Made by a program: the position numbers and the translations under genes. The notes beneath the pieces are model-generated. The model was not told where the DNA came from. It saw only the letters and a program-made list of their open reading frames with translations, and searched no databases. Positions 9,796 through 14,882 of a DNA stretch of 44,605 nucleotides are shown here, piece by piece. The first letter of the stretch is position 1, and each line of letters opens with the position of its first letter. Source of the stretch: Shigella phage DS8. The stretch is taken from the sequence record MK759854, one strand, 5' to 3'.

Positions 9796-10237
9796 TGAAG
9801 AATTTGCACAGTTAATGTTTGGCAAGCCGTACAAGGACAGATGTTGCCATGTTGACGCCGTGGATTGCTGGGGGCTGGTGGTGCTTTATTACCGCCTGTG
9901 CCGTGGCATCAATATTCATCATGACGACAGCTACGATAGTGGCGGCGCTTTTGTTACCTGCTTCGATAGTGAAGTGACGTTCTGGCAGGATACGCAATCA
10001 CCAGCAACAGGTGATGTTGTCGTAGCATATCGCGGCAACGTCCCTGTGCACATCGCCATGATATGGGGCCGTGATAGAATACTTCATGCGCGAGAGAAAA
10101 CGGCAGTCAGGTTTGACCGGCTGCGAACACTCGAAAAAATATCAACAAAGTTAAGGTTTCTCACCTATGCCAGTAATTCATGTTCAGAAGATGCCGGGTA
10201 CACCGAAAGAAACGGGAATTGTGCCAGCTGGCACTAA
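9788..10237 (+). CDS. tail assembly protein with NlpC/P60 domain (lambda K-like)
   Basis: ATG 9788 overlaps upstream stop; Cys in DAVDCWGLV and downstream His residues (VHIAMIW, ILHA) fit an NlpC/P60 catalytic arrangement; start is uncertain. Confidence 0.55.
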
Positions 10238-12653
10238 CCTGTGGAAGTGGCTGAATAAATCCAACCTACCAGCCAACATTTCAATTGCGATAAATGGCAG
10301 AGTGCTTGGTGAAGATGATGAGCTTTCTTTCTGCCTGCGCGATGGCGACGTGGTCAACGTTTACTGTCAGCCATCAGGCGCAATAGGCGACCTTATCGGT
10401 GCGATACTGAAGCCAGTAACGAAGATTTTCTCATTCCTTACACCGAAGGTATCAACGCCAAAAACGGATACCAGTTCAAAAACATCACCTAACACCAGTC
10501 TGAAAGCACAGACAAACATTGCGCGCAACGGCGAGGCGCGACCTGATAACTTCGGGCAGATTCGCGCGTTCCCTGATTTGCTTCAGGAATCATTATTCGA
10601 ATACATCAACAATATTAAATATGTCACCGAGTTCATGAATTTTGGCCTCGGTAAGTATGATGTTTCTTCTGTGCGTTATTCTGAGTCAAACCTCGGTTCA
10701 CTAGCTGGCGCGAGTTACACCATTTATCAGCCGGGGGAGGTTATTCCTGTTGTGTATGAGCCTTACGCATTTGATGACGTGGACGGTCAGGAGCTATACG
10801 GGCCAAACGAACTGGATACCTACCCTCCACCAGTGGTCATTGAAACGGCAACAACTACCACGGTCACAGAGACAGAATTTGCTGGTGGCCAGATTGCCGT
10901 CAAGATACCGAAAAACTCAGCATTCGATTACTTCCTTGACCTAACCATGCCGCATGATGTGGTTTTCAAACTGAATATCACTTACGCGCAAGGGGGTGGT
11001 GCATCCGTCACCGAAAACGTTACGCTATCAGGAAGACTTGTATCTGCAACAGAGACTGATGATGGTGGATTGCCACCAGTAAACTACTGGTACACATTTA
11101 TTATTAACAGCATTAACTACTCAGGTGCGCCAATATCATCACTGAATGGAGTGACGATTAATAACACTTATTTCAACCTGACAGATAACCAGCCGATTGT
11201 TTCTGGTCCGTACTTTTCACCGATTGGTGGTGATCAGCTTTGGGTTCACCTGCAACACCAGACCAATGATGGCAATGATTTCAGCGTACTCATTGAGTGG
11301 TGGAAGATTGACGATGATAACGTTCAGATTCCCGGAACATATCAGTCAATGAACTATTATCGGGATGTGGACAGAAACGACACGTTCTATTACACGATAA
11401 AGTTAACCCCATCCGCTGGCACTGGTCGCTACGCGATTCAGATGCGACGGACAAACAACAGTTCCGACACGTCAATCCTTCAGCTTGAGGAAATTCACTC
11501 AATAGTCACTCGCACAAATGTTTCGTATCCAGATGACACCGTGGTTAAAGTTATCGTGCGTGCAACGGAGAACGCAACAGGCAGCCGTGACAGGAAATAT
11601 AATGCGTTAATCACACGTCACACCATCGGATACAACCGTGATACTGGCACTGTGCGCTACACGCTTGCACCTTCCCGTAGCTTTGCTGATGCAGTGCTGC
11701 ATAACTGGCTGATTACCGCTGGCAATCCAGAAAATACCATCGATATAGTGAAGCTGTATGAAATTGCCGACAGCCTGCCTGATGAGCGACTTGGTTATTT
11801 CGATTACACGTTTGACGATGAGGATAAGAGCATCGGTGAACGCCTGCAGACCATTTGTGATGCAGCGCGAGTCACTGCATTCTGGGATGATGGCGTGATG
11901 AGCTTCTCTCGTGATGAAAAACGAGAATATCCGGCAACTGTATTCAATACCAGAAACACGCAGAGCGACGGCTATAAGCTGAGTTATGACATCAGTCTGC
12001 CCGGCACTTATGATGGCGTTAACGTCGAATATCGCGACCCAACAACGAATAAGCAGGCCAACGTTTACTATCGCATCACAGACAGCGGAATTGTCGAAGG
12101 TGATCCGACCAAGGCGAAGAAATTCGACATGCTTTATGTTCGCAACCGCTATCAGGCTGTTGACCGGGCAATCCTTGAGTGTCGCCGCCTTATTTACTCA
12201 CGTCGCAGTATGGAAATTAAGGCGCTTGCTGATGGCGAATGGGTTAACGTAGGTGATATGATTCAGGTCGTCGATATGTATGATGATGTGCAACAGACTG
12301 GCGTTATTGAAGCGCGTAACGGAAACATCTTCACGACTAGCGAGCAACTCACGGCAGAAGATAATCTTTATGTTGTGATAACCAGTTCTGACGGTAGTGT
12401 GTCTGACAGATTACCAGCAACAATAACCGGATTACATACATTCACCTGTAATCTGCCATCTGATTTCCTGCTGAATATATGGGATGGTACAAACGTACAA
12501 TCAGAATCTCGCTATGTGCTGAGCACGGAAAAAGAGCTTGATACCACGCTATGGGTTGTCAGCCAGAAGAATCCCGGAAGCGACGGAACCACCACTCTAA
12601 CCATGAGTGAATACAGCGACGACATGTACGAATATGCCATCCCGTCATCGTGA
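10167..12653 (+). CDS. tail tip / host specificity protein (J-like) with N-terminal TAPI-like ubiquitin-like domain
   Basis: 828 aa; N-terminal ~80 aa resemble the beta-grasp domain of lambda tail assembly protein I; remainder is a large tip protein in the J position. Confidence 0.55.
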
Positions 12654-12692
12654 TACAATATACATCAAATTCACAAAGGAGCATTTATTATA

Positions 12693-14882
12693 ATGGCTAC
12701 CACCCCAACTAATAAACCAATTCCGTCAGAGGATCCTCGCGACCTCAAGTTTAATGCCGGGAAAATTGACGAGGTAGTGACATCTAACGCGCATTACTAT
12801 ACCGATCGCTTCGGCGTGCGCCGCTGGACTATTGCTGGATTTCAATACACAGCAGAAGAAGCTATCCGTAACTATGGCTACATAACGATGGACAGCTTTG
12901 AAGATGGAGCAACATTGACGCTTCCCAATCAGACCCTGCGTTATGAAGCGAATGGTGAATATTACCGCTGGGACGGGGAATTTCCCAAAATAGTGCCAGC
13001 TGGTTCAACTCCAGATAGCACGGGTGAGGTTAAATTAGGGGCGTGGGTTAGTGTTGGTGATGCCTCCTTGCGTGCTAACATGGCATCAACCCAAAATGAA
13101 GCGCTTGGCGATAATTTGGTTGGTGTAAAACTATCATCTTATGGCGCAATTGCCAGGACACAGCATGATAAAAACGCTGATCTGATGTCTATACAAGATC
13201 TAGGTGCGGAAAGTGGCATTCCTAATCCAGAGGTTGACGACCGGGTTATGGCGGTACTGAATGCAAATGCCGGGTTGTTAATTCCAGCAGGGTTTGTGTA
13301 TGTAACCACCAAACCTCTGCACACCGCAGCATGGAAGTCTTTCAATATCATCTGCCCTAACGGGAAAGCCACTATTAAATCATCTGGTGGATACACGATG
13401 TTCACGCAGGATGGTCCATATCAGTTCCAGTATTGCACTTTTAAAAATATTATTTTCGACGGTTCTGATATTACAAATAGCGCTAACGTTTTCATGGAAG
13501 CTGCTGCCGGTGATCGGGTGGCAATGTTTACCACTCATAACTGTGTATGGCAAGGTTTTCATACTGTATGGAAAGCGTCATGGATTGCTGTTTACCACTA
13601 TAACCCAATTTTCAAAACGGTTAACGACTCCGGTTACATTGTTGATACCCCTGTGGATGACAACAACCCTTTTGCAGCGTTTAATTTAAACTTCATGGAA
13701 AGCCCAATCTTCCTTGATGCTCGCGCCAGAATGTTCTTCCGCATCCTCGGTGGGTTTAACTTCACCATTAACAATCCGTGGTTTGAGAAAAATGAGGTAT
13801 TTGGCGGGGCGTTTTTCTATTTGCGTCAATTCTTTAACTTTAAGATTAACGATGGCTGGTTTGAATACTTTAAAGGTACAAACCTGATTTATCTTAACAG
13901 CGGTGGAACAGAAAATGCTCAATCAGACCATATTATTATAGACGGGTTGCATATCAATAATTCTCGTGAAGATTCTAACTTCAAAGGACTTATTCTTATG
14001 GACCCTCCTGAACACGCAGAGAACTTCACAGACCCTAAATGCGTGTTTAAAAACATAGTTGAGCATAACAGCTCAATGGCAGGTTGGTACTTGATTAAAT
14101 CCGGTGACGATACAAACCGTGCAGAGTCTCTTACAGAAATAAAAAATCTTCGTCTCAAATACGGTCAACCAGCTTGTTCAGACGGAATGACTATTGCAAG
14201 AACACAAGAAGGGGCTAACCCCGATATCATAAATTCAATAAGGAGCTTAAGCACGCAGGGAATTCAATTTCTCCCGAGAAGGTATCAAACAACGAGCTAC
14301 CGCACAAAAAACGGCCTGTGGGAGCAACAGCAAGTAGTTGATAATGATATAAATATAGCGTACTGGAAAATAGGTTATTCAACAGTTCTTGCATGGGGTG
14401 TTGATTATGTTCGCCCTGGTAGACAGAATGCTCAAACATGCGGAACATCAACATACGCGTGGTCTGGTGGTTATACGCAAACTGCTTTCCAAATAACATC
14501 AGACCGCAATGCTAAAATGGATGAGGGTGACATTCCTGATGCTGTCCTCGACGCCTGGGGTGACGTTCAGTATGTATCATATAAATTAAAAGCAAGCGTG
14601 GCAGAAAAAGGCAGTAAAGCCCGAAGACATATTGGGGTCATAGCCCAAGACATCAAAGCGGCATTTGAGGCCCACGGAGTGGACCCATTCGAATATGGCA
14701 TACTATGTTATGACAATACCCCAGCAACAGAAGCTGTTTACGATATTTTAGAAGACGGTACACAGGTACTGCTTCAGGCTGCACAGGAGGCTCACTCCGC
14801 TTACACAGTGCGATACGAAGAAATACTTTGTCTTGAGGCCGCATATATGCGCAGAGAATTATTAAGATTAAAAAACAGTTAA
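12693..14882 (+). CDS. tail spike/fiber protein with C-terminal peptidase S74-type intramolecular chaperone domain
   Basis: 729 aa; AAGGAG RBS; C-terminal ...TSDRNAKMD...HIGVIAQDI... matches the autoproteolytic chaperone domain of endosialidase/L-shaped tail fibers; central region may be a beta-helix (possible depolymerase). Confidence 0.7.
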   Translation: MATTPTNKPIPSEDPRDLKFNAGKIDEVVTSNAHYYTDRFGVRRWTIAGFQYTAEEAIRNYGYITMDSFEDGATLTLPNQTLRYEANGEYYRWDGEFPKIVPAGSTPDSTGEVKLGAWVSVGDASLRANMASTQNEALGDNLVGVKLSSYGAIARTQHDKNADLMSIQDLGAESGIPNPEVDDRVMAVLNANAGLLIPAGFVYVTTKPLHTAAWKSFNIICPNGKATIKSSGGYTMFTQDGPYQFQYCTFKNIIFDGSDITNSANVFMEAAAGDRVAMFTTHNCVWQGFHTVWKASWIAVYHYNPIFKTVNDSGYIVDTPVDDNNPFAAFNLNFMESPIFLDARARMFFRILGGFNFTINNPWFEKNEVFGGAFFYLRQFFNFKINDGWFEYFKGTNLIYLNSGGTENAQSDHIIIDGLHINNSREDSNFKGLILMDPPEHAENFTDPKCVFKNIVEHNSSMAGWYLIKSGDDTNRAESLTEIKNLRLKYGQPACSDGMTIARTQEGANPDIINSIRSLSTQGIQFLPRRYQTTSYRTKNGLWEQQQVVDNDINIAYWKIGYSTVLAWGVDYVRPGRQNAQTCGTSTYAWSGGYTQTAFQITSDRNAKMDEGDIPDAVLDAWGDVQYVSYKLKASVAEKGSKARRHIGVIAQDIKAAFEAHGVDPFEYGILCYDNTPATEAVYDILEDGTQVLLQAAQEAHSAYTVRYEEILCLEAAYMRRELLRLKNS

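Follow-up and report, generated by a model that had tools for sequence, protein, structure and literature searches.

A probable gpI-gpJ-type fusion hub and a separate S74-bearing tailspike in the tail-tip module of Shigella phage DS8

TAPI, the ubiquitin-like tail assembly protein I of which lambda gpI is the reference, was defined as a relative of ThiS and MoaD by Iyer, Burroughs and Aravind (2006; PMC1779556), who also catalogued TAPI-J fusions beside NlpC/P60 proteins devoid of a JAB domain. [quoted passage not shown] In lambda, cryo-EM reveals residues 134/135-223 of gpI as a plug holding gpH, and the ubiquitin-like part is without density; the same study reports that gpK is not found in virions and that the enzyme cleaving gpH is not known. 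[quoted passage not shown]

We analysed a stretch of 44,605 nucleotides from Shigella phage DS8 (MK759854), hereafter the window. Its tail-tip region is ~89-91% identical at the nucleotide level to known members of the C1/STGO-35-1/Sf11 type. All coordinates given in an earlier, sequence-only reading of this DNA proved correct upon re-checking, and the two large ORFs encode proteins of 828 aa (10167-12653) and 729 aa (12693-14882). The tail-tip and tailspike genes at 10167-14882 are those usual for a populous group of enterobacterial phages, and their architecture is not new: Iyer et al. (2006; PMC1779556) had described it, and its structure has been solved in a near-identical phage. Taken together, the data are very probably best explained by a C1/STGO-35-1/Sf11-type siphophage tail-tip/host-recognition module with a gpI-gpJ fusion hub and a separate spike carrying an S74 domain (Table 1). 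Hub proteins of ~830 aa are labelled inconsistently ("tail protein", "MoaD/ThiS family protein", "TipJ family"), those of the 828-aa type being already named "MoaD/ThiS family" by NCBI, and 226 phage records carry the ubiquitin-like domain; the value for annotation lies in giving each segment its identity.

Table 1. Features of the tail-tip and tailspike region (positions in the window)
Feature	Coordinates	Strand	Evidence or remark
Distal tail protein (DTP; M-like, 157 aa), C-terminal adaptor helix predicted to anchor spike trimers	8852..9325	+	Sf11 gp17 (9OCC_C) residues 1-155, E 5e-101
Baseplate hub 1 protein (BH1P; L-like, 156 aa)	9325..9795	+	9OCC_F gp16, E 7e-102
Probable K-like assembly peptidase, 149 aa, NlpC/P60 only	9788..10237 (stop-to-stop 9671-10237; likely start 9788)	+	NLPC_P60 match
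Hub residues 1-71, ThiS/MoaD-type ubiquitin-like beta-grasp, QPSG end	10167..10379	+	
Hub residues 72-92, hydrophobic linker helix	10380..10442	+	GRAVY +1.28; AF2 helix 72-88, low confidence
Hub residues ~93-150, resembles lambda gpI C-terminal plug domain (TAPI-C)	10443..10616	+	hhalign
Hub residues ~151-828, gpJ-like hub (BH2P)	10617..12653	+	NCBIfam TipJ_rel; hhalign to lambda J; 9OCC_E
Spike residues 1-59, N-terminal helices predicted to dock on DTP adaptor helix	12693..12869	+	Sf11 gp13 match
Spike residues 63-123, TSP1/gp66-type N-terminal domain	12879..13061	+	Pfam PF18668 (Tail_spike_N), E 5e-19
Spike residues 124-602, putative receptor-binding or enzymatic body	13062..14498	+	HK2 and AsC4_1 homology
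Spike residues 603-729 and stop, S74 intramolecular chaperone, predicted self-cleavage before Ser603	14499..14882	+	Pfam PF13884
Bidirectional intrinsic terminator, end of tail operon	14889..14908	.	8-bp GC-rich stem, T-runs on both strands

The window shares with Sf11 the gene order and homologous proteins, namely the N-terminal 155 residues of the DTP, BH1P, BH2P (97%) and the spike anchor. Near-identity to the Sf11 tail tip shows which layout is to be expected in DS8: a hexameric DTP, trimeric BH1P and BH2P, and six trimeric spikes whose N-terminal helices would bundle with the adaptor helix of the DTP. In Sf11, the spike-DTP contacts are made by salt-bridge residues, including those at the R16 and K19 positions (PMC12724387). 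Both are kept in the DS8 spike, whose residues 1-146 match residues 1-145 of Sf11 gp13 (E 1e-67), and the same holds on the DTP side for the adaptor-helix residues E129, E136 and E147, E152 being replaced by Asp; the DS8 spike is thus predicted to dock as in Sf11. This N-terminal anchor is common to all 69 ORFs found downstream of the hub in related loci. On the other hand, the DTP of the window is without the C-terminal appendage of ~300 aa present in Sf11 gp17, and the tape measure protein is longer (969 aa vs 780 aa in Sf11). The L- and M-like proteins also depart from lambda in their Pfam families, which are DUF1833 or none here compared with Phage_tail_L and Phage_min_tail in lambda; for BH1P, the matches are DUF1833 (weak) and PHROG 396, a minor tail protein.

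The gene preceding the hub encodes an NlpC/P60 protein (Pfam NLPC_P60, E 6.7e-9, 36 bits vs a cut-off of 23) whose Cys27/His88/His100 triad is invariant in 75 unique homologues and aligns to the NlpC/P60 half of lambda gpK. The sequence-only reading had described it as K-like and without an obvious JAB part, which our searches bear out. Pfam returned no second domain at E<=10, Prok-JAB included; this family was likewise missing from 8 diverse K-like homologues, and the JAB metalloprotease motif HxH...SxxD occurs in no plausible ORF of the window. Lambda gpK, used as a positive control, does match Prok-JAB (6e-5). Overall, JAB is missing from the K-like protein in the window and in 78/78 related loci. 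In the same 78 loci the K-like gene overlaps the hub gene, in DS8 by its final 71 nt. Its product matches no PDB chain when compared with those of 9OCC, and the homologue is missing from the mass-spectrometry table of Sf11 virions (PMC12724387). By analogy with lambda gpK, the K-like protein is most probably an assembly enzyme that does not enter the virion.

The 828-aa hub is a real protein, expressed in the close relative Sf11: it is 97% identical to 9OCC chain E (gp14) over all 828 residues. NCBIfam TipJ_rel (NF040662) matches residues 356-822 (E 2.6e-134, 448 bits vs a cut-off of 140), and hhalign places residues 169-813 on residues 11-613 of the 1132 of lambda J, so that the J-equivalent region begins at about residue 150-170 of the ORF and ends near lambda J residue 613. 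The J-like part had been called shortened, and rightly; as judged by these alignments, it is the hub only, without the fibronectin, fibre or receptor-binding C-terminus of lambda J. We also considered translation from the second ATG (10191, Met9), which would leave the first beta-strand unmade. Met9 is the annotated start in Salmonella phage STGO-35-1 (MW477799) and would reduce the overlap with the K-like gene; however, TAAGG lies 10 nt 5' of 10167, the 9OCC hub chain was deposited with 828 residues, and residues 3-7, upstream of Met9, form strand 1 in the AF2 model with high confidence. Moreover, the N-terminal pattern MP[VLI]I.[VI]Q+ is kept at the protein level across relatives of 56-99% identity, and the first ATG is preceded by only 1-4 open codons in the closest relatives, as against up to 85 in more distant loci. 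A start at Met9 is therefore highly improbable.

The N-terminal domain of the hub is a ubiquitin-like beta-grasp of the ThiS/MoaD type. Its proposed resemblance to the TAPI beta-grasp stands as regards the fold and the position after K and before J, but not as regards the family profile: Pfam Lambda_tail_I (PF06805) gave no match at E<=10 with hub residues 1-100 or 1-200, and none at E<=1 in 30 hub family members. This profile covers only residues 14-97 of lambda gpI, which itself scores 1e-28. Weak profile matches were obtained with ThiS and MoaD only, the beta-grasp parts alone do not align significantly with gpI (hhalign, P 0.19), and a HMMER search with residues 1-100 against 1.84 billion representatives retrieved no stand-alone gpI-type proteins. 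These results would suit a J-family hub that independently acquired an extra ThiS/MoaD-like domain with no kinship to gpI. We consider this origin unlikely, given that TAPI is by definition a ThiS/MoaD relative with catalogued J fusions (PMC1779556), that the order of the segments (beta-grasp, hydrophobic linker, plug-like motif) appears to be that of lambda gpI, and that their position relative to K and J is the same.

Indeed, when the whole N-terminal 150 residues of the hub are compared with gpI, the profile alignment is colinear (P 0.0026). The hub linker falls at the far longer Gly-rich hydrophobic linker of gpI (~residues 100-150), mostly inside an alignment gap, the two measuring ~20 and ~50 residues, respectively. 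Beyond it, residues 86-200 of the hub family match gpI 140-223 (hhalign P 3.4e-4, probability 38%, cross-controls 0.3-0.65, both profiles being of low diversity with Neff ~2), and the plug-like segment contains a near-invariant motif. The beta-grasp is closed by a conserved Gly in 109/109 family members; the corresponding motif, [QP]x1-3G(G)(G), lies at positions 71-73 in 107/109 unique N-termini, the two exceptions having it at 63 or 68. We link the hub to gpI because of the colinear 150-residue alignment, the match of the post-linker segment to the plug, and the invariable terminal Gly. [quoted passage not shown]

The arrangement follows the lambda K-I-J order, i.e., peptidase, then ubiquitin-like domain, linker and presumed plug, then hub. 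As in lambda, the peptidase gene runs into the gene behind it and a conserved Gly closes the beta-grasp; K is likewise missing from virions and cryo-EM shows no ubiquitin-like part, the last two as seen for Sf11 rather than DS8. Unlike in lambda, I and J form a single polypeptide, K is without JAB and the beta-grasp is without a Lambda_tail_I match. We prefer the reading, drawn from the lambda analogy, that the K-like enzyme would act on BH2P already incorporated into the tip and cut off its 7.7-kDa beta-grasp behind the conserved QPSG, the removal representing the same checkpoint as that reported for gpK on gpI. We take the "deubiquitinating" domain of gpK to be JAB, which is missing from the K-like protein; because no JAB domain is present, removal would fall to the papain-fold NlpC/P60 domain. 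That a stand-alone papain-fold NlpC/P60 protein, and not JAB, acts as a "deubiquitinase" and provides an assembly checkpoint by clipping a cis-fused ubiquitin-like domain behind QP(x)G is put forward tentatively, as a possibility short of probable. If true, the pairing of ubiquitin-like domain and peptidase in phage tails would be more general than the JAB case of lambda, and a candidate function would be at hand for the NlpC/P60 half of gpK.

The model of Sf11 BH2P (gp14) begins at residue 81 (PMC12724387), and the density gap at residues 1-80 is equally compatible with cleavage of the domain and with a flexible tether. [quoted passage not shown] Just 9 residues lie between the end of the beta-grasp and the point at which the Sf11 model sets in, C3 averaging would wipe out a mobile domain of 7.7 kDa, and the K-like protein is without the domain taken as responsible for the cleavage in lambda. 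Furthermore, the unassigned gpH-cleaving enzyme of lambda leaves room for a tape-measure substrate, and NlpC/P60 enzymes (family C40) are typically cell-wall endopeptidases. Against a permanently tethered domain, the Gly motif closes the beta-grasp without exception, as in cleaved ubiquitin-like proteins, and the K-like gene always adjoins and overlaps the hub gene; in addition, the K-like protein is missing from Sf11 virions, which would bar it from acting on the cell wall during entry.

Host recognition would be performed by the separate spike and not by the hub, an assignment already held probable in the sequence-only reading and in agreement with the Sf11 experiments (PMC12724387). Beyond the anchor, the DS8 spike departs from that of Sf11: its body bears no relationship to the Sf6/P22-like one of gp13 (585 aa), a protein without the S74 chaperone present here. 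Nucleotide similarity to C1-like phages stops at ~13063. Within the phage collection, the only relatives of the body are those of Gamaleyavirus HK2 (82-86% aa identity) and Aeromonas phage AsC4_1 (40%). Residues 200-570 have no match in Pfam or PDB, a weak resemblance to the beginning of the helix domain of the Sf6 tailspike is confined to residues 133-200 (PDB, E 1e-3), and a check for a beta-helix by single-sequence AF2 gave a pLDDT of 32. The tail fibre of Escherichia phage HK2, an N4-like podovirus (WYA83917), is 82% identical to the spike from residue 57 to the C-terminus, including S74 and TSDRNAK; its N-terminal ~90 residues differ and would therefore attach it to the tail of a podovirus rather than to a siphovirus DTP. 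Spike body and S74 chaperone very probably constitute a cassette that has been exchanged between this phage type and an N4-like podovirus; the spike is a swappable cassette on a conserved anchor, which is useful in host-range engineering.

The C-terminal S74 chaperone, with its cleavage Ser in TSDRNAK, had been recognised correctly: Pfam PF13884 (Peptidase_S74) matches residues 603-662 (E 1e-13, 51.8 bits vs a cut-off of 22), and PDB matches are 3GUD, 3GW6, 9VVR and 6EU4. On alignment, Ser603 (codon 14499-14501) and Lys608, five residues further, fall on residues 1 and 6 of 3GUD, a released phi29-type chaperone, and on S911A/K916 of the endosialidase 3GW6, this Ser-Lys dyad (endoNF S911/K916) being documented in PMC8326128. 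The C-terminal position, the Pfam match, the Ser-x4-Lys dyad and the conserved helical C-terminus are as in endosialidase, phi29-GA-1 gp12 and T5 pb1 (MEROPS S74); unlike in these, the chaperone is borne by an uncharacterised body. By homology, it would drive folding of the spike trimer and then cut itself off before Ser603, with Lys608 as general base, yielding a mature spike of 67 kDa and a 14-kDa fragment. Such a chaperone occurs in only 5 of the 69 spikes of related loci. Past the terminator that follows the spike gene, the genes lie on the minus strand.

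The window comes from a siphophage genome and shows ~89-91% nucleotide identity with Escherichia phage C1, with Salmonella phage STGO-35-1 (Caminolopintovirus) and with relatives. Its rightward tail operon is followed by a hairpin that looks like a bidirectional terminator, past which lie minus-strand ssb/recombination genes, convergent with the tail operon. The sequence-only reading had described a tip in which a ubiquitin-like domain of the lambda gpI type is fused to a shortened gpJ-like protein, next to a K-like peptidase and a separate spike. Both its observation and its interpretation are correct; the architecture itself, on the other hand, has been described and annotated before, and its structure has been determined in a near-identical phage; in NCBI, members of the family to which the 828-aa hub protein belongs already carry the names "MoaD/ThiS family protein" or "TipJ family".

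Table. Features of the DS8 tail operon and of its spike protein
Feature	Position	Strand	Remark
Tape measure protein	5943-8852	+	rightward tail operon
Distal tail protein (DTP), 157 aa	8852-9325	+	rightward tail operon
L-like hub protein, 156 aa	9325-9795	+	rightward tail operon
K-like gene, 149 aa	likely 9788-10237	+	rightward tail operon
Hub protein ORF, 828 aa	10167-12653	+	rightward tail operon
Spike ORF, 729 aa	12693-14882	+	rightward tail operon
Spike anchor	spike residues 1-59		
TSP1/gp66-type N-domain	spike residues 63-123		
Probable bidirectional terminator	14889-14908		perfect 8-bp GC-rich hairpin, T-runs on both strands

The closest reference is the tail tip of Shigella phage Sf11, solved by cryo-EM (PDB 9OCC). 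The hub protein is 97% identical to Sf11 gp14 over its whole length, while the L-like protein matches the gp16 chain, the DTP residues 1-155 of the 457-aa gp17, the tape measure protein gp18, and spike residues 1-146 gp13. In Sf11, the DTP forms a hexamer, baseplate hub proteins 1 and 2 each form trimers, and the N-terminal helices (residues 4-59) of six tailspike trimers bundle with one DTP adaptor helix (PMC12724387). The residues of the spike-DTP contact are kept in DS8 (spike R16 and K19; DTP E129, E136 and E147), except for DTP E152, which is Asp in DS8. Homology to this solved virion shows the tip composition and the spike docking of DS8.

The relation of the hub protein to lambda gpI and gpJ was examined by profile-profile comparison. 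Over its first 215 residues, the family is colinear with the lambda gpI family profile (5-146 against 22-210, P 0.0026), although this profile is shallow, the locus search having returned 99-100% identical copies and the protein search a 70-100% identical set. With the same shallow profile, family residues 86-200 match gpI 140-223 (P 3.4e-4), whereas the beta-grasp on its own reaches no significance (P 0.19) and the crossed controls of this part-by-part comparison give P 0.3-0.65. Compared at full length, the family aligns with residues 11-613 of lambda J from residue ~169 onwards. Therefore, the 828-aa protein is best described as a gpI-like portion (~1-150) followed by the hub part of gpJ; the fibronectin, fibre and receptor-binding C-terminus of lambda J are missing from it, in agreement with the proposed shortening. 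Profiles and synteny together point to an I-J fusion, to a plug role of residues ~93-150 and to loss of the receptor-binding part of J. [quoted passage not shown] The paper on the T1 tail tip contains no discussion of equivalents of gpI or gpK.

N-terminal fragments of the hub protein gave no Lambda_tail_I match in Pfam, where this model spans gpI 14-97, and only ThiS/MoaD matches below threshold (E 0.005-0.01; Pfam, NCBIfam). A first database search with hub residues 1-140 returned 7 proteins only; HMMER with residues 1-100 against 1.84 billion representatives recovered proteins of the same architecture and no stand-alone gpI. Multi-repeat Gram-positive surface proteins in this search were discarded as spurious matches to the GDVVNVY stretch. 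Four such proteins (P0008, P0009, P0027 and P0035), long and with 5-13 tandem ~90-aa repeats carrying VTGLxEGDxxNVY, score against hub residues 34-79, which probably reflects composition or a short motif rather than beta-grasp homology. The hub family comprises at least 606 clusters, and the domain occurs in 226 phage records. Since MP[VLI]I.[VI]Q is conserved at the family N-termini, the hub start is placed at 10167. A QP-x-G(G) motif closes the beta-grasp in all 109 unique family sequences, and AF2 confidence is low for hub residues 91-200. Two linker types follow the beta-grasp across the family (hub residues 72-100), that of DS8 and a second one (GGLIKTLLNPLEHFNPIKFTQK…). The database proteins P0066 and P0072 combine beta-grasps close to that of DS8 with the other linker type, which suggests recombination inside the hub gene.

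The K-like protein was expected to carry NlpC/P60 and no JAB domain, and this was borne out. A profile search gave NLPC_P60, above threshold, as its sole match; the length of the protein leaves no room for a second domain, and eight diverse homologues likewise show NLPC_P60 only; a motif search found no JAB gene in any plausible ORF of the window. Lambda gpK, in contrast, carries Prok-JAB besides NlpC/P60. All 75 unique K-like sequences keep Cys27, His88 and His100, which line up with the NlpC/P60 half of gpK. A K-like homologue lies upstream of the hub gene and overlaps it by 14-110 nt, with the same frame relation, in 78 of 78 related IMG/VR loci (L085-L164); the lambda K and I genes overlap too, by 103 nt. 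The conserved part of the K-like protein closes with conserved Thr-Tyr-Ala codons, and the hub ATG lies within these (10163-10170). A programmed frameshift joining the two ORFs was considered and dropped: no canonical slippery site is in frame, and the conserved part of K stops exactly at the codons holding the hub ATG, the overlapping K tail not being conserved. In P0030, a metagenomic fragment from the 1.84-billion HMMER search, a K-like NlpC/P60 C-terminus is in frame with the ubiquitin-like N-terminus (…RVEFYSMPVIEIQ…). The fragment may represent a genuine K-Ub-J polyprotein; otherwise, a one-base sequencing error joins the two. TAPI-K fusions are mentioned by Iyer et al. (PMC1779556).

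In the definition of Iyer, Burroughs and Aravind (2006), TAPI joins a ubiquitin-like domain to TAPI-C through a Gly-rich linker; they also predicted cleavage by K at the terminal Gly, which would set the ubiquitin-like domain free (PMC1779556). In DS8, the JAB-less NlpC/P60 protein would remove the beta-grasp after QPSG, a hypothesis that we consider tentative and somewhat less than an even bet. The Sf11 gp14 model begins at residue 81, and the K-like gp15 is absent from the virion mass-spectrometry list (PMC12724387); in lambda, the ubiquitin-like part of gpI is invisible in the cryo-EM structures, and virions lack gpK (PMC10721106, PMC12617516). The main alternative is a beta-grasp that remains on the hub protein as a mobile domain, together with a different substrate for the peptidase.

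The proposed assignment of receptor binding to the separate spike agrees with host-range work on Sf11, which shows that its spike recognises O-antigen (PMC12724387). Nucleotide similarity to relatives ends near 13063, and from residue 57 to its end, chaperone included, the spike shares 82% aa identity with a tail fibre from Escherichia phage HK2, an N4-like podovirus, each protein having its own N-terminal anchor. Body and S74 chaperone (12860-14882; 3485-5770 in locus L004) form a receptor-binding cassette common to a siphovirus and a podovirus. The sole other phage match to the body is from an Aeromonas phage (40%). Among 69 related loci, every downstream ORF has the anchor, none the body and five the S74 domain. 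The predicted cleavage serine is sustained by alignment to characterised enzymes: S603 and K608 fall at S911(A) and K916 of endosialidase 3GW6, and S603 at residue 1 of 3GUD, a GA-1/phi29-type chaperone in its released form. The S74 Ser-Lys dyad is documented (PMC8326128), and self-cleavage at Ser603 would yield products of 67.4 and 14.2 kDa. Pfam profile and PDB searches of the body gave no match beyond residues 133-200, which are weakly similar to the Sf6 tailspike; single-sequence AF2 of the spike reached pLDDT 32.

Finally, the DTP and the tape measure protein of DS8 differ in length from those of Sf11. Its DTP ends just past the spike-adaptor helix, without the ~300-aa C-terminal appendage of gp17, a short form also found in relatives such as STGO-35-1. 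The tape measure protein has 969 aa, compared with 780 aa in Sf11 and STGO-35-1; residues 520-969 align to gp18 333-780, leaving ~187 extra residues in the N-terminal half, which no tandem DNA repeat accounts for. From this length, a noticeably longer tail is predicted for DS8.
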